From Haloplanus pelagicus (lineage in GTDB: Archaea; Halobacteriota; Halobacteria; Halobacteriales; Haloferacaceae), in the NCBI RefSeq assembly GCF_023703795.1, contig NZ_CP098519.1, forward strand, positions 92,229 through 124,228: a DNA stretch of 32,000 nt, in the 5' to 3' direction. The number at the start of each line of letters is the position of its first letter. Position 1 is the first letter of the stretch. A program made the translations under genes and the position numbers. The notes under the pieces are model-generated. The model made no database searches. It saw only the letters and a program-made list of their open reading frames with translations, and was not told where the DNA came from. Of the stretch, positions 10,015 to 32,000 are shown one piece after another.

Positions 10015-10183
10015 TTAGTAGGCGGCTAAGTCCTCTATTAAAGAAGGCGCTCATTCAGGGTATCCGAATCTGTCAGTACACGCTGCGAGAGTGAGCATTG
10101 GTTCTGTAGGGCCGAGACTGACTGGGCGAAGTCACCCTGATGCTGAATAATATTGGTGAAGCGCCGTACTGTCCGCCTTCTGG

Positions 10184-10453
10184 TCACTTGTCCGGCTTCG
10201 TCCCGGTTCGCAGATTCTCGCGGTACTCAGCCCACGCCTCGTACATTTCGATCTGATCGTTTTTCGACATTGTCTCATCGGTGTCCGGGTCGAAGAACGG
10301 AAGTTCTTCTTTCTCCGGCATCGCCATCACTTGGCTGAGCGGATAGAGCTCAGAGTAGTAGTTTTCGAGGACCCATTCTTCACCGTGATCTTCGACAGCT
10401 TCGGTAATGAATGGGGCTGCTTCCGGGTACTCGTCGGCAAGGGTATCGGGCAT
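10184..10453 (-). CDS. Hypothetical protein
   Basis: ORF MPDTLADEYPEAAPFITEAVEDHGEEWVLENYYSELYPL...; acidic haloarchaeal composition. Confidence 0.55.
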   Translation of the reverse strand: MPDTLADEYPEAAPFITEAVEDHGEEWVLENYYSELYPLSQVMAMPEKEELPFFDPDTDETMSKNDQIEMYEAWAEYRENLRTGTKPDK

Positions 10454-13845: not shown

Positions 13846-13939
13846 ATCTGCTTGGTTGCGTCGAATCGATTATCGCTCTGTTCACCACACCGCACTCGCG
13901 GCACCGTGCTCTTCTGACCGGCCTCTAAGGATAACGTGC

Positions 13940-14716: not shown

Positions 14717-15177
14717 CAGTACGACGCACAGAGCTCCTTGGTCTCGCTCACCGACACCGACACATCCGTCACGGTATCCGGGAACTCATCGAGCATGCGT
14801 TGTTCGAGGAGGAGGCTCATCACCTCCGCCGTCGGCGGGTGTTCCAACACCACGAGCGCGTCGCCGTCACCAGACGCCTCGAACGCATCTACAAGCGGGT
14901 CGCCCTCCTCAACCAGGAACCGGTGATCCCACGCGTCGATGACGTCCGTGACGTCGCCTTTGTCGACGACCCAGCCCTCCTCGGTGAGTTCACCGGTCAC
15001 TTCGACAGTGATCTCGTAGTTGTGGCCGTGTGGCCGCGAACACTTCCCGTCGTGATGTAGGATTCGATGACCCGAACTGATCCGGATTGGATTGTCGCCT
15101 CCGATTTTGAGTGTCCGCTGGCCTGCCTCGACCAAGTTTTCAGCCGTAGAATCATCTTGTGATATGCTTTGAGACAT
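14716..15177 (-). CDS. queD: 6-carboxy-tetrahydropterin synthase
   Basis: FSSGHRI-like ISSGHRILHHDGKCSRPHGHNYEITVEVTGEL, GWVVDKGDVTDVIDAWDHRFLVEEGDPL, HPPTAEVMS. Overlaps queE start (TGATG). Confidence 0.94.
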   Translation of the reverse strand: MSQSISQDDSTAENLVEAGQRTLKIGGDNPIRISSGHRILHHDGKCSRPHGHNYEITVEVTGELTEEGWVVDKGDVTDVIDAWDHRFLVEEGDPLVDAFEASGDGDALVVLEHPPTAEVMSLLLEQRMLDEFPDTVTDVSVSVSETKELCASY

Positions 15178-15259: not shown

Positions 15260-15424
15260 ATGAACACTTATTCACAAAGTATGGCACCTTTCACACGGAT
15301 TTTCGCCGGATTGGTGAGAGACACTTTTCCGCCAAATGTTGAGGAGCTCTCGACCGATCAAGAAGATGAACAACACCATCCAAGATTACAAATATACACT
15401 ACGATAAGAATAGACAATGAGTAA
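15260..15424 (+). CDS. Candidate small protein (54 aa)
   Basis: Open frame below the 60-aa cutoff of the track: MNTYSQSMAPFTRIFAGLVRDTFPPNVEELSTDQEDEQHHPRLQIYTTIRIDNE*. Its stop overlaps the next ORF's ATG (aATGAGTAA at 15416-15424). Confidence 0.4.
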   Translation: MNTYSQSMAPFTRIFAGLVRDTFPPNVEELSTDQEDEQHHPRLQIYTTIRIDNE

Positions 15425-15788
15425 ACGAGAAGATCAACGAGAGAGTAGCTTGTCCTTGAGTGAAATAGACTCCACGCGAGCCCCTGATGAAAAGCAAATG
15501 GACGGCAAATCTGGAGAGATGCTGTATCAGCTCAAATTTCACAAAAGGCAGGGAGCAACCACCGAGGTGGGAAAAGTAACTGAAATCGGATCGTTAGAGG
15601 ATTCGCCTCCCGTTGATCTTCAGGCACTTCAGACAGATACCTATACTCACTATGCTATCTTCCGTTTGAAAGATCGATCAACGACACTGATTGTACAAGA
15701 CGAATCTGGAAATACGCACAAAGCGCTTTCACTTGGCAAAGATACTGTGAAAGTACCTTACAAAGTGAGTATTACCATCCAATCTTAG
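15417..15788 (+). CDS. Hypothetical protein at island start
   Basis: ORF MSKREDQRESSLSLSEIDSTRAPDEKQMDGKSGEMLYQLKFHKRQGATTEVGKVTEIGS...; no recognised family. Confidence 0.6.
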   Translation: MSKREDQRESSLSLSEIDSTRAPDEKQMDGKSGEMLYQLKFHKRQGATTEVGKVTEIGSLEDSPPVDLQALQTDTYTHYAIFRLKDRSTTLIVQDESGNTHKALSLGKDTVKVPYKVSITIQS

Positions 15789-16137: not shown

Positions 16138-17205
16138 ATGCGACGATACCAATTCGATGACGTCGGCGAGATAGAATTCGTGGCGTCTGTCGCGCAAATC
16201 AATCGTTCTCAGCTTATCGATATCGTGGAGGACCTCGAGGAATACAACCTTGTAGAGTATGCTCTTGGTCGGATGATGTTTTGTCCGCTTACCTCCTCAG
16301 AGATTGCGGTTGATTATCTTGAATCGCTTTCATCGTCCTACGATCTCACATTCGCTTGTGATTCGGGAGGGTATGAGTCTCAAGTCAACGATGAATATAC
16401 GATGAAAGACATCTATACATTTGATCGAGAATACTACTTGTCGACAGACTGGCCTGACGAATTAGTTCTGCCCGACCAAGTGCCCGTAGAAGGAGACGAC
16501 GAGGCAACGATAGAGCAGAAGGTCCAGGACACAATCTCTCTCTCTCGAATGCTCTATAATGAACTACCAAGCGACAAGCAAGAGCGCGCAGTGCCAGTAA
16601 TCCAGGGGCATACTAAACAACAAATCGTTGAGTGTCTCGATGTTTATAGGAAGTTTGACAAAATAAATAAAATTGGGTTTGGGAGCTTTGGTACCGGAGG
16701 AGTAAATGGGGGTGTGAATTATTTGAATGAGGAGAATCTCGAACTACTACAATTCGTTGTGAAAGAGGCTCGGAAGTATGATCTAGACGTCCATGCATTC
16801 GGAATTGGCGGGCCAACTTCAATTCCTATCCTATATCAGTGTGGTGTTGATACGTTCGATTCGACTGGCTGGATACGATCTGGGGGTTATGGAAATATCT
16901 TTTTCCCATTTAAAAGTCGGCTTAATGTTACGCACCTTCGCAATCGGTCCGGTCCTACAGTCTTCCGAGAGGAATTGAGGGAAATAAAAGAGGAGACCGG
17001 ACATGAATGTCCGTACTGTCGGTCATTCGAATCCCTGCAAAACAGTCGTCAACATCGAATTTTACATAATCTTATTGTCATGCGTGAGATGACAGACATG
17101 ATCCTAGAATATTCGCTCGAAGAACTCATCGAGATGATGAATCCTAACTCAAAGTATACCGGCTACCTAAAGAAATTTACATCAACCGAGTCGGTCCGGA
17201 ACTGA
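16138..17205 (+). CDS. dpdA: DpdA-like TGT-fold transglycosylase (predicted 7-deazaguanine insertion into DNA)
   Basis: TGT-type motifs: TFACDSGGYES (D75, cf. TDSGGFQ), VPVIQGHT (cf. IVQG), FGIGGPTSIPILYQCGVDTFDSTGWIRSGGYGNIFFPF (D241, cf. GxDMFDCVxPTRxARxG.LF), and HECPYC...H zinc-like region. Only 355 aa, with no PUA or ArcTGT C-terminal domains. Confidence 0.85.
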   Translation: MRRYQFDDVGEIEFVASVAQINRSQLIDIVEDLEEYNLVEYALGRMMFCPLTSSEIAVDYLESLSSSYDLTFACDSGGYESQVNDEYTMKDIYTFDREYYLSTDWPDELVLPDQVPVEGDDEATIEQKVQDTISLSRMLYNELPSDKQERAVPVIQGHTKQQIVECLDVYRKFDKINKIGFGSFGTGGVNGGVNYLNEENLELLQFVVKEARKYDLDVHAFGIGGPTSIPILYQCGVDTFDSTGWIRSGGYGNIFFPFKSRLNVTHLRNRSGPTVFREELREIKEETGHECPYCRSFESLQNSRQHRILHNLIVMREMTDMILEYSLEELIEMMNPNSKYTGYLKKFTSTESVRN

Positions 17206-17252
17206 TTATCTAGAGGTAGATATTTGTTTGAGGTGTCTAATTGAATGACGAG

Positions 17253-18101
17253 ATGAGTCATTACACTTCAAAATTCCATATTAGTGACCCTGGCCCACAG
17301 GAGTTGTATGAATATTTGGATACTGTGGAGGCAACATCGCCATCATCGAATCCAGAACTTCTTGAATCGGCCAGAGACCTTGGCCACTCAATCGGGAGCA
17401 AGGAGAAATCTACAGAAGGTTCGGTGCTTGGCCGGCTCGGGATTGTAGATCCCACCGATCAATTTCAGTTTACTGAACTCGGTGACTCCCTGGTCGATAT
17501 CATGTATAGGGATCGGAACCTGTTTAATACGGTACTTCATTTTCTTTATTACTCTGCTTTTGAGAGATACCCAGACAGATATGTATTTATGTCGTATACA
17601 TACAGAGAGATGACCAACTATCTCTATGATAATTCCCCGTTTAGCACTTTTCGGGGAGAGCGTGGAACAATTGTTGGTGAAGTCACCGAATTAGCAGAAC
17701 AGAGTCCAGATGTCGACGTTTCCAAGACACGAAGCGGCGTGTCACTTAGTACAAAGAGTTTCAATAATTATCTGCAGTATCTTGCGGAACTATCCCCCGA
17801 GGTGCTAGTGGAGGATGACTCTGGGAGTCCCGGATTCGAGCGACGTGCGTTCTGCCCTCCGGAACTTATGATCTTGGCCGTGGATCATATCTATAAGCAA
17901 AACGAGACAGATTATGAGACGCTCCTCAGAGTGACAGATGATACCAAAGTTCGAATTCAACAGATGTGCCTCCTCTCTGATGATGGGTTCGATGAGGTAA
18001 CCGAGTACGCTGAACAGGCGTATCCATTCTTCTCAAAGAAACATGACTTTGGTCTCAACCTTCGATTAGACCGAGAAGTAACTCTTGATGACCTCCAATA
18101 G
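17253..18101 (+). CDS. DUF4007-like / winged-helix protein, possible defence regulator or adaptor
   Basis: MSHYTSKFHISDPGPQELYEYLDTVEATSPSS...VLGRLGIVDPTDQFQFTELGDSLVDIMYRDRNLFNTVLHFLYYSAFE, similar in layout to DUF4007 proteins. Track ORF starts at TTG 17241; ATG 17253 is preferred. Confidence 0.55.
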   Translation: MSHYTSKFHISDPGPQELYEYLDTVEATSPSSNPELLESARDLGHSIGSKEKSTEGSVLGRLGIVDPTDQFQFTELGDSLVDIMYRDRNLFNTVLHFLYYSAFERYPDRYVFMSYTYREMTNYLYDNSPFSTFRGERGTIVGEVTELAEQSPDVDVSKTRSGVSLSTKSFNNYLQYLAELSPEVLVEDDSGSPGFERRAFCPPELMILAVDHIYKQNETDYETLLRVTDDTKVRIQQMCLLSDDGFDEVTEYAEQAYPFFSKKHDFGLNLRLDREVTLDDLQ

Positions 18102-18102
18102 C

Positions 18103-18504
18103 ATGTCGTCACCTGTTGCAGAACTACTACAGAAATCTAATGAGGCAAAGCGGCGACTACAAGATGACCTCCTGACCGACGATCAGATCGCAGTACGCTC
18201 GAAACTTTTGGAATTTGCTGATCAGGACGGCGGTCATTACAACTTGTATGGAGCAAGAGGTGTTGGCAAGACCACGCTGGCTAAATATATGATGGTTCAT
18301 CAGAACGGGTGGGGATACGCTCCATGGCTACCCGTGAAAAATGCCTCAACACGAGTCCTCTTCGTCGATAATGTACCGGCAACCAGGACAGCGTCACGCA
18401 GAGCGCGTGAAATTATTGGATTTGACACTCCAGACACGGTGATTTCAGTTTCGCGCAAACCGGTTCCGGAAACAAAAGCGCGTGTTACACTCTCTGACAA
18501 CTGA
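18103..18504 (+). CDS. Minimal P-loop/AAA-like ATPase (about 133 aa)
   Basis: HYNLYGARGVGKTTLAKYMMVHQ (Walker A), STRVLFVDNVPATR (degenerate Walker B), TVISVSRKPVPET. ATG 18103 lies 1 nt after the preceding stop. Confidence 0.6.
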   Translation: MSSPVAELLQKSNEAKRRLQDDLLTDDQIAVRSKLLEFADQDGGHYNLYGARGVGKTTLAKYMMVHQNGWGYAPWLPVKNASTRVLFVDNVPATRTASRRAREIIGFDTPDTVISVSRKPVPETKARVTLSDN

Positions 18505-18591: not shown

Positions 18592-21500
18592 ATGGGACAG
18601 GCGAATGCGCAAAATATCGAGTCCTCTCTTCGAGAACTCAATGACACGCTGAACAAAGATGAGGGGATTGTCAATACATCAAGCGCTCACCGATTTTTAG
18701 ACCAGCCGAGCGATATCGAGACCGAATACATTGAGTACGCTCGGACTCACCTGATCCAGCCAGACATTCAACGGTTTATCGATTCGTTGACTGGAGCCCT
18801 CGAAGATGAAGATCTGAATAAATCTGTTCCTGGATACATTGTGGGCCCCTACGGGTTTGGGAAGACCAGTACAACGGGAAAAGTTTGGTACCTTCTTGAC
18901 CAGGAAGACAACTACATTACTACCCCTCCGATCTATTTCGATGAACTACAGTCAATTGTCGACGCCGTGTACGGATGGATGCGGTTCCGCTTGAGGGACC
19001 GAGAAGAGCATCTAGAAACCCTCGAACAGCGGTACCAGGCCAAAGTGACCAGTAACGTCGAAGATATTGTTGACCAAACTGGATTCGATGACAAAGATCA
19101 AACCCGGGAAGAGTTCGAGCGACTAATCGAGTCGGGATCGATTGATATCGAATTCTCGGTCCAACACGTTCTGGATTTCCTTTCTGAATGTAATCAGATC
19201 GCAAAAGACGCTGGGTACAAAGGCCTCGTCGTTATTGCCGACGAACTTCAGCAGTTCATATCCAGTCACTCGTCTGACAAAGAAGCATACTCTAAGCTAC
19301 GTGATATTGCAAAAAGCACAGCCCTCGGCCTGAACGAAGGCGACGGCTTGGGTCTTCTGTTCACCATGGACGATGGTCTCCACGGAGACCTGGACGTGAA
19401 TGCAGACGATGTTCTTGCGCGGTTAGCAGAACAGAACGTTCAACTCAACTTAGCGAATGTTTACAACCGAGATTTCCCGACTAAGCTGTGGGAAAGTCTG
19501 GCTGAAACTTACGGTTTCAAGGACAGACGCTACGAAGTAATTACCGAGGATACGCTAGACGCAATTGGTCAGATCTGTGAACGTGGACCTCCTCTTTCAA
19601 ACGGCCCTCGTTCAGTTGTGGACATTCTCACGATCGCTATCGAGCACTACCTCTCTGAGTCGGAGGCGTTTGATGCTCTTGACCTCGCCAATGCGTACTA
19701 TAATGGCGTTGTCCGATTCAAAGGAGACCACATCAAAACCGCAATCACAGAGGCGATTAATTCTGATCAAATAAGTACCCCCGATCGTGAGAATTTCATC
19801 AAGCTGTGTGGGGTATTCCCTCGAGGAGTCTCAGATGACCTACTGAAGCAGTATGGGGTTCACGAGGCGAAAGAACAGGTCAAAGGAGAACTTCACGGAC
19901 AGCTCATCATCACACACGAGGAAGGGCGCACGCTCAAACGTCTTGAGCGGGAAGGAGAGGATCGTGGGATCAAAGACGAACTGTTCACACAGTTCTATCG
20001 GGATTATGACACCACAGACATCTACGATTCGAACGCTTCTGAGACGTTCCGAGAATTTGTTGTTTCGGAAGAACTCTTCCCCGCTGTTCGAGGAAAGAGT
20101 CTGAGCAGCTGGGTTACCGAACACGCCTTTGAACCCGAAACTGGAGGAGTGTACGCGGCAGTCTTTCGTGGGTCATTCAACGGGCAAGAGTACCCTGAGC
20201 GGCTTATTGAAATCCGAATGGGCACGGATGCTACATCAGTTAAATCGCCCGATGAAGGCACAGATACTGACCTCACGATTGGCTTTGCCGTTAACATGGA
20301 GAAGCAGACTGAAGTCACCCCTCACATCGAACGGGTATCTACTGACGAGGTTCTTCTACATCTAGACTTAGCTGATTCTTTCGACAGCCTCCCGAGCAAT
20401 ATCGTTATGTTGGAAGATTACATGAGTCCGGAAGATGTCAGCCCCCATCTGCTGCTCTCCTTACATCACTTCATGCGTAATTGGGAGGAGAACCAAACAG
20501 TCAATCCCAACCAGGAGACACAGTTGGAATATATCCGTGACCAGTTAGTCACGCAAAGCATTCAGAAGGCGTTTGGCCCTCCCCTGAATGGGGACGACTT
20601 CCTCGATGAATCAGGGAGTAGTCGCCGGACCGTTGATCCGTCAAAGGTCGTCGAGAAAATCTTCAACCGTGTAATCGAAGAGGTCTATCCTGATTATAAA
20701 ACTCTCTTCATCTCGGACAATTACCAGACCTTCTTAGATGACTATGAATCTCTCCTAGTAGGAAACGATCCGAATATCCGGATCTCACAAAAGCGGGGTA
20801 ATACCCCAATTGAAGGGACAAAAAGCGATATTTCCAACGCGATCGGGGTATCTAGTAACTCGACAGCAAAAACACGTCTTGATAAACAATTTGAAGATCT
20901 CGTTGACACTGAAGTCTGGCAGGGCAAGGATGCCAGGGTTCGATTGACCCTTCATCCCCTTGAGGAACTTCTTAAAGACCATATCGAGGAGCAAGAGAAG
21001 GAAACTGTCGCCGTCAGTGAGTTATATGATGTAGCCGGGGAGAAAGGGTACCGGCAGGAAGAAGTTGACTGGGCAGTCCGCCTCCTTGTTGGTCGAGATT
21101 TCATCAAGCATGATCAAAACGATGAAACGGTCGAACTGAGCGACATTGCTATCGACATCGACCAAGTCAAATCTCGGCTGGAATCACTCCGAAACACGGC
21201 TGCGGAGCTCAACGAAATCTCGAACGAGTGGAGTGAGTATGACTCGATCACTAATGAGTTGAATCGCCTTGAGGAGGAACTCAGCGGAACGACGAATGAC
21301 GACATTGAGATACTCGATGATCTTAACGCCGAGCTAGAAGAGGTAGATTCGCAGATCTCGACGCAGATCAAGGCCACAAGTGCGACCCTTCGTGAACGTG
21401 CCCGAGGAACAATAGACAGACTCAAAGGACTTTCATCCAGCAACAAGCCTCGCGATCTGAAAAAGACTGTCGAGAAGTCTAATGTTCCGTTCGGCCTCCA

Positions 21501-22683
21501 TATCAAAGACATCGAGACTGAACTATCATCCAACTTTACAAAAGCAACTACAGAGGCCGACTCTGCCCGCTCAGATCTTGATACAGATCTCGAGATTGCA
21601 TCTGGCACGGCAGCTCTGAGTGAGATTAATACTCTACAGGACTCAATTGAGGAGGCGAAAGAAATCGCTGAGCAGGTTGATGAAGAATTAGAGGATATCA
21701 AAGAGGACGCGGCTGACTACGCGGATTGGTGTCGACTTGCAAATGACATGGACGCTGCTCGTTCGGATATTGTTCAGTATGCAAATACTCATCCTGACAA
21801 CAGTGCCGCGATGTCAATCAGGGATGAGCTTACCGCTCTGATGAGTGAGATTCAGACTGAGTTCCAGAAGGGCAGTGACCACGATGACTTCCCTCAGGCA
21901 CTGCGGAATGCCGAAATGTATCGGCAGCAGTTCGAAGACCTCAAAGACCAATTCGAGGAGATAACTCAGGGGGACGAAGAGAACTTCAATTACCGGAAGA
22001 ATGTGCTTGAGAACACGCTGAAGATTGGTACTTCCGGCCACCCAAGTATCAGACAAAACTTGAGTCCTAACAATGCTGAGAAGTCACGTAATGACCTCAA
22101 GCATGAGTTCCGCCGCCAGCTGGTTGAGAACAGCGATGGAATCGAAGATGTAAAGTCCGATATCAAATCGATTGAGACCAGCATTGAGTATGCTGAGTTG
22201 TTGAATCAGGTTCCGGATGAAGCTGACCCGACTCCGGCTGATATCCGCGATCAGATAGTCGATTTCGAATCTACTATTGAAGATATCCATCAGGCTGTCA
22301 GTCAAATGGATATCACTTCGGCTATCCGACTTCCGACTGAGGGTGGCCGTTCGAACTCGTTCCCCAACACCGATGAGAAATTGAGTCTCTCGATTGACAA
22401 CCGCGAGGTGAACGTCGGCGAACGAATCGACGAAATCCGAGATTCAATTGAGGCACTCCATCAAGACGTTCGTGAGTGGCGACAGGTTACTGAGACTCCC
22501 CCAGAAGATCTTGAATATATTATGGATGAACTGGACTATCGGGATCAGTCTGACTTGGAGAGCGTCCTAATTTCAGTCTCTGAAAAGAAAGGTGACACCG
22601 ACGTTGCAGAGTTCTTTGCCGATCTGGAAACCTTATTCGAGGGGAACCACATCACGGTCTCGATCAAAAGCGAACATAGGTAA
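18592..22683 (+). CDS. BrxC/PglY-like large ATPase
   Basis: 1363 aa. VPGYIVGPYGFGKTSTTGKVWYLL (Walker A, aa 85-92), GYKGLVVIADELQQFISSH (Walker B), long C-terminal coiled-coil-like region. Directly followed by a PglZ-domain gene. Confidence 0.75.
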   Translation: MGQANAQNIESSLRELNDTLNKDEGIVNTSSAHRFLDQPSDIETEYIEYARTHLIQPDIQRFIDSLTGALEDEDLNKSVPGYIVGPYGFGKTSTTGKVWYLLDQEDNYITTPPIYFDELQSIVDAVYGWMRFRLRDREEHLETLEQRYQAKVTSNVEDIVDQTGFDDKDQTREEFERLIESGSIDIEFSVQHVLDFLSECNQIAKDAGYKGLVVIADELQQFISSHSSDKEAYSKLRDIAKSTALGLNEGDGLGLLFTMDDGLHGDLDVNADDVLARLAEQNVQLNLANVYNRDFPTKLWESLAETYGFKDRRYEVITEDTLDAIGQICERGPPLSNGPRSVVDILTIAIEHYLSESEAFDALDLANAYYNGVVRFKGDHIKTAITEAINSDQISTPDRENFIKLCGVFPRGVSDDLLKQYGVHEAKEQVKGELHGQLIITHEEGRTLKRLEREGEDRGIKDELFTQFYRDYDTTDIYDSNASETFREFVVSEELFPAVRGKSLSSWVTEHAFEPETGGVYAAVFRGSFNGQEYPERLIEIRMGTDATSVKSPDEGTDTDLTIGFAVNMEKQTEVTPHIERVSTDEVLLHLDLADSFDSLPSNIVMLEDYMSPEDVSPHLLLSLHHFMRNWEENQTVNPNQETQLEYIRDQLVTQSIQKAFGPPLNGDDFLDESGSSRRTVDPSKVVEKIFNRVIEEVYPDYKTLFISDNYQTFLDDYESLLVGNDPNIRISQKRGNTPIEGTKSDISNAIGVSSNSTAKTRLDKQFEDLVDTEVWQGKDARVRLTLHPLEELLKDHIEEQEKETVAVSELYDVAGEKGYRQEEVDWAVRLLVGRDFIKHDQNDETVELSDIAIDIDQVKSRLESLRNTAAELNEISNEWSEYDSITNELNRLEEELSGTTNDDIEILDDLNAELEEVDSQISTQIKATSATLRERARGTIDRLKGLSSSNKPRDLKKTVEKSNVPFGLHIKDIETELSSNFTKATTEADSARSDLDTDLEIASGTAALSEINTLQDSIEEAKEIAEQVDEELEDIKEDAADYADWCRLANDMDAARSDIVQYANTHPDNSAAMSIRDELTALMSEIQTEFQKGSDHDDFPQALRNAEMYRQQFEDLKDQFEEITQGDEENFNYRKNVLENTLKIGTSGHPSIRQNLSPNNAEKSRNDLKHEFRRQLVENSDGIEDVKSDIKSIETSIEYAELLNQVPDEADPTPADIRDQIVDFESTIEDIHQAVSQMDITSAIRLPTEGGRSNSFPNTDEKLSLSIDNREVNVGERIDEIRDSIEALHQDVREWRQVTETPPEDLEYIMDELDYRDQSDLESVLISVSEKKGDTDVAEFFADLETLFEGNHITVSIKSEHR

Positions 22684-22688
22684 CTCCC

Positions 22689-23864
22689 GTGTCTACCCGC
22701 ACTATTGAGTCACTGTCTGCCTTGGCTGAAGCGACACGTGACGGACCAGTTGTCGCAAATATCGGAGGGCTCGAGTCTCGAGTACTACAAAACAGGCATG
22801 GTATCGATACCCTTGAATCGCTTGAAGAGTTTTACCGCCTCTATGAGTCTCCGACTAATTTGTTTGAAACCGATGTGATCATTCGGGATCAGGGATCTAA
22901 GCCGTCCTTTGATAGGTCACTTACGCTCTACAACCCACCTTCGATAGAACAGGTCGAATACACTGGCACCGTGTACGATAGGTCGCTTAATGGACTCATA
23001 TCAGAAGGGTCGATTTCTTGGGACGATGTGGAGAGCACAACCACTTGTCAATCAGAGGTCGGCGATCTCATCACGGAGGCGGCATCTGATGTTGATGTTA
23101 TTGCGCTGGTTATTGTTGATGGCCTCTCCTATCAGGATTGGACAGACTCAGGCTATGAGGCAGAGCCAATCTATGTTGATTGCCCAACACGTACAGATTG
23201 TGGCTACCCAAATGTCGTCCGTGGGGCATCCAACGGGAAGCATCTCCAATATCGGCTTTTCAACGAGGGATATAAAACCCGGAAGGCGTTCACCTACTGG
23301 GAACGTAAGGATAACGACCTTTCTGACGAATTGCACGATGGTTTCTCCAAGAACGACGTAATCGGAAACATCCAGGACTTTGCTGATTCCATCTCATATT
23401 TACAGACCCACGATTGGTATCGACCGAAGACCTATCTCCAGTTCACTCTTACCGGTCCTGAACGTGTAGCGCACCGAATGAAGGAGGATCCTGTGATCCA
23501 GAGTGAGGTAGACGCAGTTCATCAAAAGTTGTCTGACCTCCGTGAAACAATCAGCAAAGAAACGGACTCATTCCGTATTTTCGCTGTTGCCGACCATGGT
23601 ATTCTCTGGCGGATGGATACTGACTTTGAGGCACTTGATGAAAAGTGGAAGCAGGGAATTCGTCGGGACTATGAAGACCCTCCAGCCAGCGCATCTGTTC
23701 CTGAGTCCGTTGGTGAAACATCCTTCTGGGCTGGTCAGCAATATCTCCGGCTTTATCACCCACACATATTCAATAACCTACGAAGTAACGAACCAGGAGT
23801 ACACGGTGGCTTTTCGTACCAAGAGTCCATTGTTCCGTTAATTGAATACGAGGATCTGAAATGA
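22689..23864 (+). CDS. pglZ: PglZ-domain protein (alkaline phosphatase superfamily, compact)
   Basis: GTG start 22689. VIALVIVDGLSYQDW, PTRTDCGYPNVVRGASNGK, FRIFAVADHGILW, EPGVHGGFSYQESIVPLIEYE, in PglZ order. 391 aa. Confidence 0.82.
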   Translation: MSTRTIESLSALAEATRDGPVVANIGGLESRVLQNRHGIDTLESLEEFYRLYESPTNLFETDVIIRDQGSKPSFDRSLTLYNPPSIEQVEYTGTVYDRSLNGLISEGSISWDDVESTTTCQSEVGDLITEAASDVDVIALVIVDGLSYQDWTDSGYEAEPIYVDCPTRTDCGYPNVVRGASNGKHLQYRLFNEGYKTRKAFTYWERKDNDLSDELHDGFSKNDVIGNIQDFADSISYLQTHDWYRPKTYLQFTLTGPERVAHRMKEDPVIQSEVDAVHQKLSDLRETISKETDSFRIFAVADHGILWRMDTDFEALDEKWKQGIRRDYEDPPASASVPESVGETSFWAGQQYLRLYHPHIFNNLRSNEPGVHGGFSYQESIVPLIEYEDLK

Positions 23865-25030
23865 CACAAGAAATATTCATTGGCGAGGAACGTGATAGCG
23901 GCGAGGAAACGCTTATTGACACTTCGAAGGCCCGTGCTCTCTTCGTTTGTGGGAAGCGAGGGACCGGCAAGAGCTATTCGTTGGGAAACGTCATCGAGGA
24001 GGTCAACCGAGAGATGCCCGACACAGTTCCCCTTGTTGTTGACCCGATGGGGATTTACTGGACGATGGCCGAACCAAATGACGAACAGCAAGATCTCCTC
24101 TGGGATTGGGGAATGCAGCCGACTGGGTTTGACACTACACTCCTCGTTCCGGGCGATCCAACAGAACGTTACGGACCTGAAGTCTACGATGAGATGATGC
24201 GCCGCGGTATCGAAATCGAGAGCCTGCGTCTCAATCCTTCTGACATTTCTCCCGATGGGTGGTGTGAACTCTTCGATCTCAATATAAACAAACCGATGGG
24301 TATTGCGTTGTACCGAGCTGTCCGTTCGCTAAACGAATCTCAAGACTTCTTTGACCTGGACGAGCTCATCGAAGAAGTTGAATACGACGAAAAAGCAAAC
24401 GAGCGGACTGTGGACGCTCTTGTCAATCGTCTGGAGATGGCACACGAATGGGGCATCTTTAGTGACTCATATACAGACATCTGGAACAATCTCGATCCTT
24501 CTCGGGTTAATATTCTCGACGTGAGTGTTCTCGACCCAGGGAAGTACGGTCTTCGTAATTTGGTCGTCTACGTACTGACAAAAAAAATATTTGATGAGCG
24601 ATCGAAAGCGCGCCGTCGAGAGGAACTACAGTTGTCCTCTGATATTCCGAAGGTCTGGCTATTCATCGATGAAGCACACAATTTTGCACCGTCCGGGTCG
24701 TCCTCGCTTGCGAAGGATATCTTGATTCGATGGATCAAGGAGGGACGTCAGCCGGGGCTGTCGCTCGGCATAGCAACTCAACAGCCAAGTGCTGTATCCT
24801 CAGATGTCGTGTCCCAAATGGACTTGATTTTCTGTCACAAAATCACTACTCGCACTGATATTCAGTCGCTGAACGAACTAAGTCAGGAGTACATGGGGAG
24901 TCAGCTGAAGACCTATATCAAGAAAATCGATAAAGTTGGTGAAGCAGTCTGCGTCGATGACGAAAGAGAAGTAGTAACGCAGGTTCAAATGCGACCACGT
25001 ATGAGTCAGCATGGTGGCAGCGGGGCATGA
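23861..25030 (+). CDS. HerA-like P-loop ATPase/translocase
   Basis: ARALFVCGKRGTGKSYSLGNVIEEV (Walker A), VPLVVDPMGIYWTM, VWLFIDEAHNFAPSGSSSLAKDILIRWIKEGRQPGLSLGIATQQPSAVSSDVVSQMDLIFCHKI. ATGA overlap with the pglZ stop. Confidence 0.88.
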   Translation: MTQEIFIGEERDSGEETLIDTSKARALFVCGKRGTGKSYSLGNVIEEVNREMPDTVPLVVDPMGIYWTMAEPNDEQQDLLWDWGMQPTGFDTTLLVPGDPTERYGPEVYDEMMRRGIEIESLRLNPSDISPDGWCELFDLNINKPMGIALYRAVRSLNESQDFFDLDELIEEVEYDEKANERTVDALVNRLEMAHEWGIFSDSYTDIWNNLDPSRVNILDVSVLDPGKYGLRNLVVYVLTKKIFDERSKARRREELQLSSDIPKVWLFIDEAHNFAPSGSSSLAKDILIRWIKEGRQPGLSLGIATQQPSAVSSDVVSQMDLIFCHKITTRTDIQSLNELSQEYMGSQLKTYIKKIDKVGEAVCVDDEREVVTQVQMRPRMSQHGGSGA

Positions 25031-25563
25031 CAACAAATATTCAACGATCAAACAATTCTACGGCAGTGCCAACTACAGTCGACCTCCAGATCTCTGACTT
25101 CCTTGTCAAATCAATTAGTAAAAGTGAGAGATCGGTATCAGAATTGAATTCTTTTTTTAATTCTAATCAGATCAAATCTGAACTCCATTGGTTCACTCAT
25201 CGGGACACCCTGGAACGTGCAGCGTCACGGCCTGACCGACGGTTGTTTTATTTTGCACCCCACGATGCGATCATCGGCGGACTCATGATTTGGTGTGAAT
25301 CGAGAGTGCTTGACCAAACGGAAGCACAAATACGCCTTGTTGCTGTTTCACCAGATTATCGAGGCTATGGAATCGGACAGTACTTAGTGAAAAAGGCTAT
25401 TGAATTTGCAAAAGAGCATAATAAGGAATCAATAATCGCGGACGTTGCAGCCGAAGCTCCCGCAGTACAATTCTGGGAGGCTATCGGGTTTCACAAAGTT
25501 GATTCGTACTTTACAAATGGTGGTCGAGAAATGTATCAGATGGAACGGCACCTGAGTAAGTGA
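25027..25563 (+). CDS. GNAT-family acyltransferase
   Basis: IRLVAVSPDYRGYGIGQYLVKKAIEFAKEHNKESIIADVAAEAPAVQFWEAIGFHKVDSYF. ATGA overlap with the HerA-like gene. Confidence 0.88.
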   Translation: MTTNIQRSNNSTAVPTTVDLQISDFLVKSISKSERSVSELNSFFNSNQIKSELHWFTHRDTLERAASRPDRRLFYFAPHDAIIGGLMIWCESRVLDQTEAQIRLVAVSPDYRGYGIGQYLVKKAIEFAKEHNKESIIADVAAEAPAVQFWEAIGFHKVDSYFTNGGREMYQMERHLSK

Positions 25564-25597: not shown

Positions 25598-25996
25598 ATG
25601 TCACAGTCCTCTTCCAGTTCTGAACGAAGTTCCTTACTGGACTCTTTTGAAGCCCCGGAGACGTCAGTCGCTCAGGTGTATACGTTTGAAACAGACGAGG
25701 TAACAGCACTCTGTCCGTTCGACTTCGGAGGGCCTGATTACTATGAGTTCACTCTAAAATACGTTCCTTCCGAAGACTGTGTCGAGAGCAAGAGCCTGAA
25801 AAAGTTCCTTGAATCGTATCGTGATGTTGAGATCACTGCCGAAGGACTTGGTGCCGAGATGTATGAAGAAATCACCGAGACAATATCTCCTAAAAAAATG
25901 TACATCCGGCTCGAACAGGCACGGCGAGGTGGGATTGAAGAAACTGTTGAGTTCGGTGATATAGAATTGAAGTCCGCAAGAGAGCAGGTACAATAA
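25598..25996 (+). CDS. QueF/QueF-L-like T-fold enzyme acting on preQ0 (reductase or amidinotransferase)
   Basis: EVTALCPFDFGGPDYYEFTLKYVPSEDCVESKSLKKFLESYRD...RLEQARRGGI aligns with QueF (EFTSLCP..GQPDFA..ISYIPD..CVESKSLKLYLFSFR...RGGI). C39 and D47 match the catalytic Cys/Asp. Confidence 0.85.
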   Translation: MSQSSSSSERSSLLDSFEAPETSVAQVYTFETDEVTALCPFDFGGPDYYEFTLKYVPSEDCVESKSLKKFLESYRDVEITAEGLGAEMYEEITETISPKKMYIRLEQARRGGIEETVEFGDIELKSAREQVQ

Positions 25997-26568: not shown

Positions 26569-29154
26569 GTGCCATTTCCCCGCGCTAAATCATCCCGTCA
26601 ACTCTACGACGAAGTCAAATCGTATGACCGAGTGATTACCCCAGACGGACCGCTCGCGAGTGCCCTCAACCGCCAGCTTGATCGGTCACACCTCGGTCCG
26701 TTTGCTATACCCCCACGTCGCCTTGCGGTCGGTCGCCGGCAAGAATCTGAGGACCGCCTCGCGTTTCTCGGCATGATCGCAAATGAAGATATTTCGTGGA
26801 AACGGTGCGCCTACGCAGTCGGGAATATCCTCCAGTGTTGGGAACACCAAGGATCCCACGAGGCTATCTTCGAGTACGACGCATACATCGACGAGGCTAC
26901 CGAACGAGCTGTTGAGCGAATCGGTGACCTTGAGACGGCCTCGATGAAGCTCACAACCGACACTATCGATTCAGATCTCGATGTGGTCGTTGTCGAGCCG
27001 GAGATGCTTACAAAACTCGAACGAGCGTATCTGCCTACTGAGTACGATACGGTCAGTCTCTTTGCCGACACAGAGTTTGAGCTGCCCCCGTTTCGGATCC
27101 ATGATTCACCGACAGCGATCATCGAAACGGTGGTGAATGCGGTCACCGAAACAAACGCCGAAAACGTCGGGATCGTCCTCGATCAGGAAAGTGAGTACTC
27201 GCCGCTTATTGAGTCCGCACTCGAGGCAGCCGACATCCCGTTTTTCGGCGGACCGGGCTTTACTGATCGCAGCGAACACCGCTTGTTTCTTCATTTCCTC
27301 CGGACTGCCCACCGTGGAACTGACACTCGGATCAGCGAGATTCGGTCGCTGCTGACAGCTTTTGACTGTGATGTGGCCGACCGTGAGGCAGACAAGCGGC
27401 TCCACGAACTCGATGATGAACAATTGTCGTGGCTGATCGACTTCTGTCACGAGATCCAGGAGTACACGTTTTCGGACGCGCTCTCGGTGTTCGAACACCG
27501 CACCGACGACGTGCTTGATGCCTTTCGAACGGAGCTTGATGAGCTTGGTATCGCCGACGAGACTGTCACGGAAGCGCGCCTCGACGAACTGTCGTTCTAT
27601 CTACAGACGTATGAGGTCCCTGTTGACCGGGATAACGAAGGCGTCCTGCTCGCCGACGCAAAGTCAGCATCATACGTCGGTCGTGAGGTTGTCTTCTATC
27701 TTGGCCTCGATGACCGGTGGACGCATTCGGCACCGCGTCGTCCGTGGGTTGATCAGGATGCTCAGTTCACGCGGAATCTCAAGAGCTTCCAGTTGCTGTT
27801 ACAGAGTGGGAGTCAACAACACTATCTCGTTCAGGATGCGACCGGCGGATCACCCGTCACCCCATGTCTGTACTTCGAAGAGCTCCTCGAGCAAGAGTAT
27901 GATCGCTTCTCAGAGCTGCCGTCTACCACCCATCAACTCCGATCTGAATCACACGATGGGGCTGTATTCAACACAGAGGCAGTTGACGTGTCTTCTGAAC
28001 CAGTAGAGACGATTAGTAAGTCGAGTCTCAACACCTACGTGAACTCACCCCGAGACTACTACTTCAGCCGGATCGTCGACGGCCCAGAGAAAGACTATCT
28101 CACTGAGGGTACCCTACTCCATGACTTTGCGGAGTTCTACGTTACCCATCCAGCGGTCGTCGACGACGCGGCGCTGACAGACGTCGTTGATCTCATGCTT
28201 GATGAAGTCCGTCCCCTGATCCGCTCTGTTGATGAACAGACTCGCCGGACGGAGTACCGTCTAAGCCTCGAAACAATCGTCTCGTACCTTGATGACAACC
28301 CTCCGACAGACGGAGCGTTCCTTACGCCCTCCAGCAGTACTGAGAACGCTATTGCCGACTACTTCGGGTATGATATCGAGTCGTCGGTAACTGAACGCCG
28401 GTTTGTTGATGAGGATCGTGGTATCAACGGAATGATCGACCTTGTCCAGTCGCAAACCGAGCTGCTGGATTACAAAAGCGGGAGCGAGAACGACGCCAAT
28501 TCGATCGTCCAAGACGCCGCGATCGACGAACTCTCCAACGAACCTGACTTTCAGGCGTTGCTATATCTCACTTACTGGAGCTCACAAACGCCCGCTCAAC
28601 AGCTTTCGTTCACGTTCTTCTACGTTACTGAACTCGTCGACGACGCCATCGCCGGTGACGTCGATATCGACGACGTGCTGACGACGGTGACGTATTACCC
28701 CGGATCTCTCACAGATCACGTCCGAACAGAGGAGTTCTTCGAGTACCTTTGTGAGGAGGGGGCTAACGACTGCCAGAAGACCCTCTCGAAGATCGATTAT
28801 CAGACGTACGCTGCTCTCTTCGATGCCGCACCACTCGTCGAGACAACTGACAGCGACGAACTCATCGAGTCAGAGTTTGGCCGGACGATGATCGAACGAC
28901 TTGAGGCGGAGATTAGTGACTTCGTCTATGTAACGACGGGAAGCAAACAGGTCATGCGGGAAATCGCCCGGAAACAGAAGGGTGCGTTTTTTGAACCTGA
29001 CCTAGATGCGTTTGAGTCGTTTGTTGAAGAGCGGCTAACAGAGCTCAACCGACGTCGCACCGGCGACGAACCGTTTCCCATCGAGGGACTTGCCGGCGAG
29101 CCGAATTACCGGCGGGTAGACAATCGGGATTTGCTCTTGGAGGGTGAACAATGA
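26569..29154 (+). CDS. AddB/RexB-like PD-(D/E)XK nuclease family protein
   Basis: 861 aa. SKSSLNTYVNSPRDYYFSRIVDGPEKDYLTEGTLLHDFAEFYV and RGINGMIDLVQSQTELLDYKSGSEND (GxxDxxx...DYKSG). Overlaps the downstream UvrD-like helicase by ATGA. Confidence 0.78.
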   Translation: MPFPRAKSSRQLYDEVKSYDRVITPDGPLASALNRQLDRSHLGPFAIPPRRLAVGRRQESEDRLAFLGMIANEDISWKRCAYAVGNILQCWEHQGSHEAIFEYDAYIDEATERAVERIGDLETASMKLTTDTIDSDLDVVVVEPEMLTKLERAYLPTEYDTVSLFADTEFELPPFRIHDSPTAIIETVVNAVTETNAENVGIVLDQESEYSPLIESALEAADIPFFGGPGFTDRSEHRLFLHFLRTAHRGTDTRISEIRSLLTAFDCDVADREADKRLHELDDEQLSWLIDFCHEIQEYTFSDALSVFEHRTDDVLDAFRTELDELGIADETVTEARLDELSFYLQTYEVPVDRDNEGVLLADAKSASYVGREVVFYLGLDDRWTHSAPRRPWVDQDAQFTRNLKSFQLLLQSGSQQHYLVQDATGGSPVTPCLYFEELLEQEYDRFSELPSTTHQLRSESHDGAVFNTEAVDVSSEPVETISKSSLNTYVNSPRDYYFSRIVDGPEKDYLTEGTLLHDFAEFYVTHPAVVDDAALTDVVDLMLDEVRPLIRSVDEQTRRTEYRLSLETIVSYLDDNPPTDGAFLTPSSSTENAIADYFGYDIESSVTERRFVDEDRGINGMIDLVQSQTELLDYKSGSENDANSIVQDAAIDELSNEPDFQALLYLTYWSSQTPAQQLSFTFFYVTELVDDAIAGDVDIDDVLTTVTYYPGSLTDHVRTEEFFEYLCEEGANDCQKTLSKIDYQTYAALFDAAPLVETTDSDELIESEFGRTMIERLEAEISDFVYVTTGSKQVMREIARKQKGAFFEPDLDAFESFVEERLTELNRRRTGDEPFPIEGLAGEPNYRRVDNRDLLLEGEQ

Positions 29155-32000
29155 GCAACCTCGAACCGAATCCGGCACAGCGCGAACTCATCAACGCAAT
29201 CGAGGGGCTGTACCTCGTCGATGCGGGCGCTGGCACTGGGAAGACCTTCACCGTCACCCGCCGATACGCGCATATCGTCGAACAGGATGGGGTAGCTCCG
29301 TCCGACGTCCTGTTGGTCACGTTCACGAACAACGCTGCCGAGGAGATGCGCGACCGGATTGTGCAGAACAGCGAGTACGGTATGCGGGAGCTCTCGAACG
29401 CCCCAATTCAGACGTTCCACTCGTTAGCACACGATATCCTTGACGAACACGGCCATGATGCTCCGACATATCTCGGCGTGGAGGAGACGATCACCGGATC
29501 GACGCGGATCATCGAAGACGACATCATCGAAGAGGCGCTGTTTCGAGAGTTCATCGGCCAGTTCATCGACTCGCACCCTGAGTACAACGAGTTCTTCACA
29601 GCGATTTCGGAGACGACAGAGCTGCTCGATCTCATCAAAGAGCTGTCTGCGAAGGGTGTCTTTCCCACCGCAAACGGCTGGTACCGCGACGGTGAGTCAC
29701 ACCTCGACGGTGACGTTGCGGCGTTCGAGACGTTGTTCGCCGATATAAACGAACCTCGAAACGGTGGCAGCAAGCAGTCTAAGCTCCGCAAGAAGCTCAA
29801 CGACTACGGGGATGAGAAAACCTACCTCCCAGACGCCCCTGAAAAGTGGGAGCTTCGGGGGGACGGCAAGCAGATCCCAGCGGATGTCGCAGAACGCGTC
29901 TTTGAGGACGATCGAACGGCACTCAAGCAGTTCGTCCATGACGTGTATCACGCCTATCTTGAGTTTGCGCTTCGACGGAATTACCTGAACTTCGGGTTCC
30001 TTCAGCTGTTCGCGTTCGTCCTGCTGTGTGAAGACCACGACCTCCGAGAACGGCTAGGATACGAGTACGTGATGGTCGATGAGTTTCAGGACTCGAGTGA
30101 AATCCAGTTCAAGCTGATGCTTCTTCTAGCCGGCACAGATAACATCTGTGTGGTCGGTGACTGGAAACAGAGTATCTACAGCTTCCAATACGCCGATGTC
30201 GACAACATCCGTGAGTTCGATGATCGACTCCACCGATTTGTCGATGAACTCAACCGAGACGCAGAGCGAATCGCGTTCTCGCCGACGAAGGCTGCCGGCA
30301 AACGGTTGACGCGAAACTATCGGTCGACACAGTCTATCTTGGAGTTCTCCACACATGCGCTGACGGCGCGCGCGACGAAAAGCGAGTCGCTAGATACTGA
30401 AGCAATTTCTGAGACAGTCACACCGTTGGAGGCTGATACGGACCGTGATGATAGTCGTATCGAGGCGCTCACGAGCGAAGACGAACACGAGGCGATCCTC
30501 GCGAAAATCGACGACATCGTCGATAATGACGACTACGCCGTTGAGGGTGACGACGGCGAGTACCACGCGCCAAAATACGGCGATATCGCCGTATTGACCC
30601 GAACTCGCGATTTCGGTCGGGACCTACTCGACACGGCGAACGCGTACGACCTCCCGATGGCGTATGAAGGTGGCATTGAGGTGTTCCGAACGGACGCCGC
30701 AAAGCTACTGTTAGCGTGGCTTCGGATCCTCGAACGTGACGCCGATCGCGGCTGGGCGCTCGTCTTAGAGGAGGCTGGGTACACGATCGACGAGGTGAAG
30801 GCGATCATCGATCGCGACGCGTACCCTGACGCGATGATTACCTTCCGCGAAGACCTCCAAGAGATGGAGACATTCGGCGGTGTCGCCCGTCGCGTGTTCG
30901 ATCGATACGACCGGAGCGGCCCAACTGCGGACGTCGTTCTCGACACTATTCAGTCAGTCTATGGGACGACAACGTTCACCCGTGGAGAATTGATTCAGTT
31001 CATCGAAGCAGCGATCGAAGATGGCAGTACCCACGAGGTAGACGCTGGTGCGGGGACAAATGCGGTGACTGTTCAGACAATCCATGCGACGAAAGGACTC
31101 GAATACCCGATCGTCATCCTCGCGAATATGAACACGAACAAGTTCCCATCGACGGGCGGTAGTGGGAGCGATATTGCGTACACCGATCCGATCGGACTCC
31201 GACAGCGAAAGGTGTACTCTGAAGAGGCTCACGATGTTCCACACGTCTACGACAACTGGCAGACAGACGTTCTCAACAAGTGTCTCCCTCCGAACTATGA
31301 TGAGGAACGCCGACTCCTCTACGTCGCTATTACGCGCGCTGAGAGCCACGTCATTTTGACCGGCGGTGAGGATCCGAATGTGTTCCTCGATGACCTTCCA
31401 GTTGACATCGAACCAGTTGATCCAGATCTGTCGACCTTCGACCCGATAGAGGACGAGCATTCACCGTTTACGGTTGATATTCCGGATCCAGATGGGCCGG
31501 CACGCTACTCTCCTCATACGTTCATTGACGACGCGGTATTCGAAGGGAACACCGGTGGTCGTGGAATGGAGTTTGGGTCGGAAGTCCACGAATTCGCGGA
31601 ACAGTATGTTCTCGATAAGGCTGTCGACACCGAGGGCAACCCTGACAAAGAGAATGTGAAGGAATTCTTGGATTCACTTGATGGCGAGAGGAAAGCTGAG
31701 ATCGACGCGTTTCTTCCGCTGACCGTCGATGACAAGGAGGTGACGATCGGTGGGATCATCGATTTACTCCATATTACGTCTGACCAGATCGATATCATCG
31801 ACTACAAAACTGACCTCACGACCCACGCCGAAGACGAGTACGAGAAACAGCTCAGTATTTACTACCACGTCGTTGCCGACCAATATCCAGATCGAGAAGT
31901 CACTGCCTCAATCTTCTACACCAATGATGGTAACCAGCGCAGGATCACCCATCTCAGCAAATCCGAACTCAAAGACCTGATCCGAACTCACCGTACCTGA
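29151..32000 (+). CDS. UvrD/REP superfamily 1 helicase with C-terminal PD-(D/E)XK nuclease (AddA-like)
   Basis: NPAQRELINAIEGLYLVDAGAGTGKTFTVTRRYAHIV, YVMVDEFQDSSEIQFKLM, VVGDWKQSIYSFQYAD, TRNYRSTQSIL, VTVQTIHATKGLEYPIV, RRLLYVAITRAESHVILTG; C-terminal IGGIIDLLHITSDQIDIIDYKTD. Stop codon at 31998-32000. Confidence 0.92.
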   Translation: MSNLEPNPAQRELINAIEGLYLVDAGAGTGKTFTVTRRYAHIVEQDGVAPSDVLLVTFTNNAAEEMRDRIVQNSEYGMRELSNAPIQTFHSLAHDILDEHGHDAPTYLGVEETITGSTRIIEDDIIEEALFREFIGQFIDSHPEYNEFFTAISETTELLDLIKELSAKGVFPTANGWYRDGESHLDGDVAAFETLFADINEPRNGGSKQSKLRKKLNDYGDEKTYLPDAPEKWELRGDGKQIPADVAERVFEDDRTALKQFVHDVYHAYLEFALRRNYLNFGFLQLFAFVLLCEDHDLRERLGYEYVMVDEFQDSSEIQFKLMLLLAGTDNICVVGDWKQSIYSFQYADVDNIREFDDRLHRFVDELNRDAERIAFSPTKAAGKRLTRNYRSTQSILEFSTHALTARATKSESLDTEAISETVTPLEADTDRDDSRIEALTSEDEHEAILAKIDDIVDNDDYAVEGDDGEYHAPKYGDIAVLTRTRDFGRDLLDTANAYDLPMAYEGGIEVFRTDAAKLLLAWLRILERDADRGWALVLEEAGYTIDEVKAIIDRDAYPDAMITFREDLQEMETFGGVARRVFDRYDRSGPTADVVLDTIQSVYGTTTFTRGELIQFIEAAIEDGSTHEVDAGAGTNAVTVQTIHATKGLEYPIVILANMNTNKFPSTGGSGSDIAYTDPIGLRQRKVYSEEAHDVPHVYDNWQTDVLNKCLPPNYDEERRLLYVAITRAESHVILTGGEDPNVFLDDLPVDIEPVDPDLSTFDPIEDEHSPFTVDIPDPDGPARYSPHTFIDDAVFEGNTGGRGMEFGSEVHEFAEQYVLDKAVDTEGNPDKENVKEFLDSLDGERKAEIDAFLPLTVDDKEVTIGGIIDLLHITSDQIDIIDYKTDLTTHAEDEYEKQLSIYYHVVADQYPDREVTASIFYTNDGNQRRITHLSKSELKDLIRTHRT

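Follow-up and report, generated by a model that had tools for sequence, protein, structure and literature searches.

Archaea make no queuosine, and preQ0 (7-cyano-7-deazaguanine) normally goes directly into their tRNA (PMC6884629). Why then does a gene island of the haloarchaeon Haloplanus pelagicus close with a gene for a protein resembling QueF, the reductase that turns preQ0 into preQ1 (7-aminomethyl-7-deazaguanine)? The gene lies in a stretch of 32,000 nucleotides (assembly GCF_023703795.1, contig NZ_CP098519.1, positions 92,229 to 124,228), which is called the window below and the numbering of which is used for its features. Since archaea do not synthesize queuosine, a system that requires preQ1 has to bring its own QueF, and the protein of the window is most likely such an enzyme, a preQ0 reductase that would supply preQ1 for the marking of DNA by a transglycosylase encoded in the same island. 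Like the other functional statements made here on the protein and its island, this one is drawn from sequence and genomic context.

Identity of the QueF protein

The reading frame starts with ATG at 25598, runs to 25996 on the plus strand and encodes 132 amino acids. An identical protein of Haloplanus pelagicus is annotated as hypothetical, 309 homologues are found at E<=1e-3 (those with a named source come from haloarchaeal genomes) and key residues are invariant, all of which speaks against a chance reading frame; sequence comparison thus indicates a real gene under selection. The product matches the Pfam QueF family PF14489 with E=6.3e-17 and 62 bits, the gathering cutoff being 27.3. In a HMMER alignment with Bacillus subtilis QueF (4f8b; residue numbers are those of the literature, Met1 omitted), C39 corresponds to Cys55, D47 to Asp62, E63-S-K-S-L-K-K-F70 to the NADPH motif E78-S-K-S-L-K-L-Y85, and T80-A81-E82 to F95-H96-E97. 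Among the 120 homologues listed of the 309, C39, D47, E63, S66, K68 and E82 never change, S64 is kept in 117, position 65 is always Lys or Arg, and the F-H-E site reads (T/S)-A-E in 117, the pattern after which the clade is named here. The catalytic and motif residues are also unchanged in 56 sequences derived from the loci discussed below. If the QueF/NADPH motif is written as E(S/L)K(S/A)hK(L/Y)(Y/F/W) (PMC10516641), the segment of the window protein fits at seven of the eight positions; at position 7 the clade is variable and has K, L, Q, E or R.

An AlphaFold (AF2) model built from 31 sequences reaches a pLDDT of 84.6, and its best match in the PDB, as found by Foldseek, is again B. subtilis QueF 4f8b (E=1.6e-10, TM 0.74). 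A PADLOC scan gave no match for the protein itself, nor did an exact look-up of its sequence in the contig index. An earlier note on this DNA, made from the letters alone, had named a QueF-like protein with C39, D47, E82 and an NADPH-type segment, to be given up if no match to PF14489 was obtained or if the catalytic residues were lost in a proper alignment; the match is present and the residues are kept.

The same note had drawn attention to the histidine of the FHE motif, which appeared to be replaced by Ala. The replacement is real in the alignment with 4f8b but carries no weight, since this position is variable across QueF. Among the 150 nearest representatives at 50 % identity, taken from 1.84 billion proteins, it is occupied by A in 41, C in 28, H in 19, V in 15 and G in 10, and the triplet ‘FHE’ occurs three times; the Cys is found in all 150, the Asp and the motif Glu in 148 each. 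Moreover, the phiSM QueF has Gln at this position, and it complements an E. coli ΔqueF strain (PMC10516641). Given this variability and the complementing enzyme with Gln, the idea that the change from His to Ala alters the chemistry, for instance towards release of an aldehyde, was dropped. A literature search on the role of the FHE histidine, His229 in E. coli, found no paper naming His229. The hallmark of the clade is rather the Thr or Ser that replaces Phe95 of the B. subtilis enzyme; the QueF of the halovirus HVTV-1 has Ser there.

For a step beyond preQ0, the earlier note had offered two products, preQ1 or, in the case of a QueF-L-like enzyme, dG+. The step itself agrees with what is found here, and of the two products the evidence favours preQ1. 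A QueF-L-type amidinotransferase would convert preQ0, in DNA or tRNA, into the formamidine archaeosine base (dG+ or G+) with ammonia and without NADPH. QueF-L, the archaeosine synthase of Pyrobaculum calidifontis, has the same fold as the window protein, retains the Cys, Asp and Glu and is archaeal, as is the host of the window protein. Small amounts of dG+ are reported in HVTV-1 DNA, and phage QueFs were historically assigned to QueF-L by HHpred (both PMC6884629). The window protein does match QueF-L by sequence (5jyx, E=1.5e-4) and by predicted fold (7.6e-7, TMq 0.65). However, both comparisons come out stronger with B. subtilis QueF (E=9e-8 by sequence; the values given above by fold). QueF-L acts on preQ0-tRNA and has lost the NADPH motif while retaining Cys and Asp, with AIEEFKKM at the motif site, whereas the window protein has the motif in the conserved form described. 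The phylogenetic check proposed in the earlier note, run as a neighbour-joining tree with QueF-L as a chosen and not an inferred root, groups the clade with QueF.

Related proteins point in the same direction. Phage and virus proteins of the type found in the window yielded dPreQ1 and not dG+ (PMC6884629, PMC10516641), dPreQ1 accounting for about 30 % of G in HVTV-1 DNA (PMC6884629). On the NCBIfam equivalog TIGR03139 for unimodular QueF (preQ1 synthase), which has its cutoff at 86.9 bits, the window protein scores 81.9, HVTV-1 QueF 78.3, phiSM QueF 96.3, and a protein of 142 residues with Y-H-E from sister loci, where it has the same role, 146, which makes the latter a bona fide QueF. On account of the NADPH motif, the better matches in sequence and fold and the true QueF equivalogs of the sister loci, an NADPH-dependent reductase of preQ0 to preQ1 is the favoured prediction and a dG+ synthase appears very improbable.

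QueF in archaeal islands and mobile elements

QueF aside, the island is a BREX-Related Capture (BRC) system: a HerA/FtsK translocase, PglZ and a BrxC-like DUF6079 ATPase are encoded in one cluster (matches to DUF87/HerA, PADLOC PglZ and BrxC_BrxD), along with the optional modification pair of such systems, a TGT-superfamily transglycosylase and a GNAT acetyltransferase (PF01702 and PF00583). Each of the seven distinct genome loci that have a TGT-type BRC cluster (the window, L001, L002/L003, L004, L005, L006 and L007) also encodes a QueF, and about 20 non-duplicate metagenome contigs likewise combine HerA/BRC genes with GNAT and QueF. The sample is biased, because QueF was itself the query by which many of the loci were obtained. 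Tests in the reverse direction were confined to four fusion proteins, described below, and one methanogen GNAT; a scan of genome contigs with a TGT alignment under strict peptide patterns gave two loci, and the synteny comes from protein look-ups and one metagenome scan.

The QueF proteins that occupy this place in archaeal BRC loci belong to three lineages. Members of the (T/S)-A-E clade follow GNAT in the window and in most other loci. In Halovivax, Halorientalis and Halorubrum SY-15 the gene for the 142-residue Y-H-E protein immediately precedes that for TGT. A third lineage, with S-H-E, is found in the BRC locus of a Methanotrichaceae archaeon (GCA_013178225.1), where its gene overlaps that of GNAT; this locus was retrieved as a deliberate test of the prediction of QueF in a non-halophile, and QueF was there. 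That different QueFs have been recruited repeatedly and independently is the strongest argument that the system requires canonical QueF chemistry.

Some loci depart from the common arrangement. Halovivax cerinus (L002/L003) has two QueF paralogues (8844-9272, minus strand, and 10001-10387, plus strand), the Y-H-E protein upstream of TGT and a divergently transcribed copy of the (T/S)-A-E clade that reads T-G-E. In the metagenome contig L020, a full BRC cluster has behind it a truncated QueF (8091-8249), GNAT fragments and a second, intact QueF (9692-10363), a layout resembling the scar of a recombination event at the boundary of GNAT and QueF. In two further loci QueF adjoins a protein of the Vut_1/YhhQ family, to which queuosine-precursor transporters belong (L067:10001-11166 and L055:1443-3681); the former is a viral contig with PolB, and in the latter the Vut_1/YhhQ protein lies between QueF and the BRC TGT. 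These two suggest a variant that salvages precursors.

A metagenome scan with the QueF alignment revealed a second context, in which QueF is immediately followed by a fusion protein of about 350 residues, GNAT::DUF6610; DUF6610 is DpdA4, a DNA transglycosylase family of archaeal viruses (PMC10516641). A literature search found no description of the GNAT::DUF6610 fusion, both domains of which are carried by at least 118 of the 120 listed clusters of the family at 90 % identity. When four fusion proteins on longer contigs were looked up in reverse, QueF was directly upstream in every case, with overlapping stop and start codons. These four loci lie in surroundings of viral or proviral appearance (MCM, PCNA, integrase, DNA methyltransferase, a Mom-like gene), in which no genes for preQ0 synthesis were found. 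The cassette is abundant in hypersaline metagenomes (L033:7550-8957, L069-L074 and about 25 short loci in L030-L053, L057, L063 and L064); L074 encodes a Mom-like protein at 756-1259. Scanning viral contigs with the fusion alignment brought back only the contig already known.

Pairs of QueF and DpdA4 without GNAT also exist (L034-L036, L051). Another is borne by plasmid NZ_CP099999.1 of the cultured strain Natronosalvus halobius AGai3-5, a circular replicon of 47.5 kb that also carries MCM and a C5 methyltransferase and in which QueF, annotated as hypothetical, overlaps a DUF6610/DpdA4 gene devoid of a GNAT domain (L077 5983-7045). Among cultured haloviruses, the eight records with QueF (HVTV-1, HVTV-2, HCTV-1, HCTV-5 and HCTV-16) are exactly the eight with a homologue of the island GNAT, such as HVTV1_90 (38 % identity, E=1e-28), and none of the other 47 records with a DpdA4 domain, most of which come from viruses of Halorubrum and Haloarcula, is one of them. 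As these viruses are related, the co-occurrence counts as one evolutionary event. In the neighbour-joining tree, QueFs from BRC loci group as a subclade within those linked to DpdA4.

Haloarchaea normally make tRNA archaeosine with ArcS, and the earlier note had looked to DNA rather than tRNA as the substrate of the modification. This is supported by the position of QueF at the end of a conserved TGT/BREX-type block, found in at least seven genome loci and many metagenome contigs, and by its closest relatives adjoining DpdA4. In the pathway proposed here, QueC, QueE and QueD together with a GTP cyclohydrolase would make preQ0, QueF would reduce it to preQ1 at the expense of NADPH, and the TGT/DpdA-like transglycosylase would swap genomic guanines for the 7-deazaguanine and so mark self DNA; the BrxC-like ATPase, PglZ and HerA could then act on invading DNA that lacks the mark. 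Phage QueF proteins have been linked experimentally to dPreQ1 in DNA (PMC10516641). Reduction may precede insertion, a route by the free base being favoured by the phage precedent: when VH7D DpdA2 was produced in E. coli, dPreQ1 appeared in DNA only with the host queF, and the ΔqueF strain had only dPreQ0 there, at about five-fold lower levels (PMC10516641).

The enzyme could instead serve the RNA or metabolite biology of the host, be it in a preQ1-derived tRNA modification or by depleting preQ0 and thereby starving a viral DpdA4, its position in the island being incidental. The adjoining queCDE genes, with their host-like GC content of 0.57-0.61, would fit such a role, and the island TGT is too divergent for its nucleic-acid substrate to be called by sequence. 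However, QueF itself has the GC content of the island and belongs to a conserved block ending at or just past its stop codon, the TGT/GNAT/HerA synteny is kept across genera and classes, and in mobile elements, with no genes related to tRNA close by, QueFs of the (T/S)-A-E clade are linked to DpdA4. A purely RNA-directed or metabolic role is accordingly hard to credit.

Several points nevertheless weigh against a preQ1-forming enzyme that feeds DNA marking. The window protein falls 5 bits short of the TIGR03139 equivalog cutoff. Phe95, which we take to stack on the substrate, is missing from the Thr/Ser clade, the substrate handling of which could differ. The island TGT matches DpdA and TGT models only weakly, and it is the context that suggests an action on DNA. 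The two QueF types of Halovivax could be not fully redundant. A function of the (T/S)-A-E clade unlike that of canonical QueF was considered and is retained as a minority possibility, most loci having one type or the other in the same system. HVTV-1 QueF is reported to have failed to complement E. coli ΔqueF (PMC10516641), and the reductase activity of halophilic QueFs is predicted from their sequence and surroundings.

The GNAT acetyltransferase and a possible acylated base

The association of QueF with GNAT, which is absent from the earlier note, is the more interesting lead. The aminomethyl amine is the sole new nucleophile that QueF makes, and GNAT may acylate it, either on the free base or in DNA. 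The final mark would then lie one step beyond preQ1 and be an N-acyl-dPreQ1, in the simplest case 7-(acetylaminomethyl)-7-deazaguanine. We regard this extension as plausible yet tentative, with the balance tilted slightly against it.

In its favour, GNAT lies within 350 bp of QueF in 23 of the 34 cases in which QueF is flanked on each side by 500 bp or more, and elsewhere in the same cluster in six others of them. The pairing recurs with all three QueF lineages, with two transglycosylase families (TGT-type and DpdA4), and in haloarchaea as well as in a methanogen. The fusion of GNAT to DpdA4, the overlap of QueF with the 5' end of the fusion gene and the confinement of both QueF and GNAT to the same eight halovirus records, all described above, also fit, as do the occasional GNAT-TGT fusions (PMC12839542). 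The acetyl-CoA motif is intact in every GNAT aligned; in the island protein it reads R-x-x-G-x-G, with R112 and G115 invariant in comparison with viral and methanogen relatives. There are also precedents for enzymes that modify the aminomethyl group of a DNA base, which lies in the major groove. One is the GNAT PaMx11 gp48, by which 5-aminomethyl-dU in DNA is converted to 5-acetylaminomethyl-dU (PMC8989533), and DpdM and DpdN give the N-methyl- and N-formyl-dPreQ1 of phages (PMC10516641). In comparison with these enzymes, the activity proposed for the island GNAT is purely inferred.

Other observations stand against acylation. A literature search found no report of acetyl-dPreQ1 or of any other acetylated 7-deazaguanine. 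GNATs are promiscuous with regard to substrate, and the best family matches of the present one (RimI, polyamine acetyltransferases) are weak. Although the nucleoside assay applied to HVTV-1 is believed to quantify a fixed set of known nucleosides, this virus has a GNAT homologue and its DNA is reported with dPreQ1 as the main modification and no acetylated species (PMC6884629). Pairs of QueF and DpdA4 that lack GNAT, such as that of the Natronosalvus plasmid, mean moreover that GNAT is not obligatory. A role of GNAT that has nothing to do with the base, as a toxin or in the acetylation of proteins, was also considered; that GNAT is fused to DpdA4 and occurs in viruses makes such a role less likely.

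On the acylation model, archaeal BRC islands and the QueF-GNAT::DpdA4 cassette of viruses and plasmids might both install a so far undescribed N-acetyl- or N-acyl-preQ1, which would be a self mark for the host and, possibly by mimicry, a means for the virus to evade restriction. This wider proposal is plausible, if slightly more speculative than its chemical core. If true, an N-acyl-preQ1 could be made from host preQ0 with only two enzymes beyond the transglycosylase. QueF, GNAT and DpdA4 form a compact module that could use a common metabolite to introduce a functionalised base into DNA.

The island and its relation to known systems

The substrate of QueF would be supplied by queC, queE and queD (13156..15177, minus strand; PF06508 at E=3.7e-72, Radical_SAM and PTPS), which are transcribed divergently from the island; a GTP cyclohydrolase for preQ0 synthesis was not found in the window. 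The genes that follow are all on the plus strand. A conserved protein of 123 amino acids (15417..15788) has no Pfam match but, by tblastn, adjoins the cluster or QueF in at least ten other loci with 37-84 % identity (L001, L002, L004, L005, L007, L018, L022, L024, L028 and L031), and it may be an undescribed ninth component of the system. The DpdA-like transglycosylase of 355 residues (16138..17205; PF01702 at E=1.4e-10, PADLOC DpdA at E=1.5e-5) is predicted to exchange DNA bases; its motifs DSGG, GVD(S/T)FD and CPxC...H are unchanged in five orthologues. The two next genes are placed by position. A 286-residue protein (17241..18101) in the DUF4007/BrxA-like slot, assigned on position only, has no Pfam match; by tblastn it is conserved at 26-61 % identity in L001, L004, L005 and L006 and without match in L002/L003 or L007. 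The 139-residue product of 18085..18504 is a small P-loop NTPase (AAA_25 and AAA_16 matches), probably the BrxB-like STAND NTPase in view of its conserved position.

The large BrxC/DUF6079-like ATPase (1363 residues, 18592..22683; PF10923 BrxC_BrxD at E=2.3e-6) stands where it does in the loci of PMC12839542. It is followed by a PglZ-like protein of 391 residues (22689..23864; PADLOC PglZ at E=3.9e-6, the PF08665 matches of its orthologues being weak or faint) and by the HerA/FtsK-type translocase (23861..25030; PF01935 DUF87 at E=4e-12, PADLOC HerA at E=1e-19). The GNAT gene (178 residues, 25027..25563; PF00583 at E=2.3e-14) overlaps the herA stop codon with its start and ends 35 nt before the start of QueF.

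Between about 15000 and 26000 the GC content amounts to 0.44-0.49, against 0.55-0.61 outside this block. Nucleotide homology to related metagenome contigs ends at 25976/25977 (L013, L017) or at 26346 (L011, 98 % identical, some 350 nt past the QueF stop), so that both the GC step and the end of homology bear out the earlier view that QueF closes the island. The queDEC genes adjoin the cluster also in L004 and L007, and L019 has a queD fragment; they may travel with the island despite their host-like GC. QueE (13940-14716, minus strand, in the window; L007:19746-20519) is 93 % and QueD 84 % identical between the window and Halorubrum sp. SY-15, which looks high across genera. Downstream of QueF, 26569..32000 (plus strand) encodes a helicase-nuclease pair, an AddB-like protein of 861 residues (PDDEXK_1 and UvrD_C) and an AddA-like one of at least 949 residues that runs off the window (UvrD helicase and PDDEXK_1). 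Homologues adjoin the cluster at L004:1-165, L005:1824-7294, L017:5188-5460 and L019:13290-15869, and a PDDEXK_1/UvrD_C protein adjoins the methanogen cluster (L075:5124-6116). The pair may represent an accessory nuclease, a recurrent neighbour or a preferred site of insertion.

Upstream of the island, an Mrr-type (type IV, modification-dependent) restriction endonuclease (3037-4074, minus strand; Mrr_cat at E=1e-22) lies in a separate patch of low GC (0.40), so that the window holds more than one defence gene. No link to the island was seen for an Orc1/Cdc6-type AAA+ protein (5265-6293, minus strand) and an ADP-ribosylglycohydrolase (11827-12807, plus strand; E=2.6e-77), both also upstream of it.

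To our knowledge, no 7-deazaguanines other than the dPreQ0 and dADG of the bacterial Dpd system are known in cellular genomes, and we know of preQ1-type DNA bases only in viruses. New here are the QueF/GNAT/DpdA4 cassette in haloarchaeal mobile elements and QueF as a conserved eighth component of the archaeal TGT/GNAT-type BRC, which would imply a cellular mark at the preQ1 level, possibly acylated. With the unimodular QueF of B. subtilis (YkvM) the window protein shares the Tunnel-fold and the NADPH motif, together with the Cys that forms the thioimide, the Asp, and the Glu that binds preQ0. It differs in sequence (29 % identity over the fold alignment, T-A-E instead of F-H-E) and in its setting, which is a defence island and not an operon for queuosine, in an archaeal host without a queuosine pathway. 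The QueFs of HVTV-1, Dp-1, phiSM and VH7D (Hutinet 2019, 2023) are encoded beside a DNA transglycosylase and associated with a preQ1-type DNA base, as is proposed here; that of HVTV-1 also shares the small residue at the Phe position and a score below the TIGR03139 cutoff. These proteins, however, serve viral anti-restriction, whereas the window QueF is found on a cellular replicon and linked with genes of restriction type; its identity to HVTV-1 QueF is only about 26-30 %, and it falls into a separate clade of the neighbour-joining tree.

The bacterial Dpd system (dpdA-K, Salmonella Montevideo) resembles the present island in pairing a preQ0-fed, TGT-family DNA transglycosylase with restriction components. 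Unlike it, Dpd yields dPreQ0 and dADG and has no QueF, and the restriction module of the window is of BREX/HerA type. Since the cluster proteins, when scanned with Pfam and PADLOC, gave no match to DpdB (ParB-like) or DpdC (DUF328), the island is better classed as BRC. The published BRC system consists of seven components, PglZ, DUF6079/BrxC-like, STAND NTPase, DUF4007, HerA, GNAT and TGT (PMC12839542, NAR 2026). Its GNAT alignment includes Halogeometricum sp. S1BR25-6, Halorubrum sp. SD683, Halovivax cerinus and Haloprofundus halophilus, and the loci retrieved here are orthologous to those named in its supplement. The modification was there described as ‘perhaps restricted to dPreQ0 alone’ and the GNAT left unexplained; QueF has no occurrence in the text or in the supplements examined. 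In the same loci, QueF is a constant eighth component of the archaeal TGT/GNAT clusters sampled here, which argues for a mark at the preQ1 level. If this constancy holds, preQ1-derived DNA bases are implied in some archaeal chromosomes, the 2026 description of BRC misses the enzyme that defines its chemistry, and the unexplained GNAT gains an obvious substrate in the amine made by QueF.

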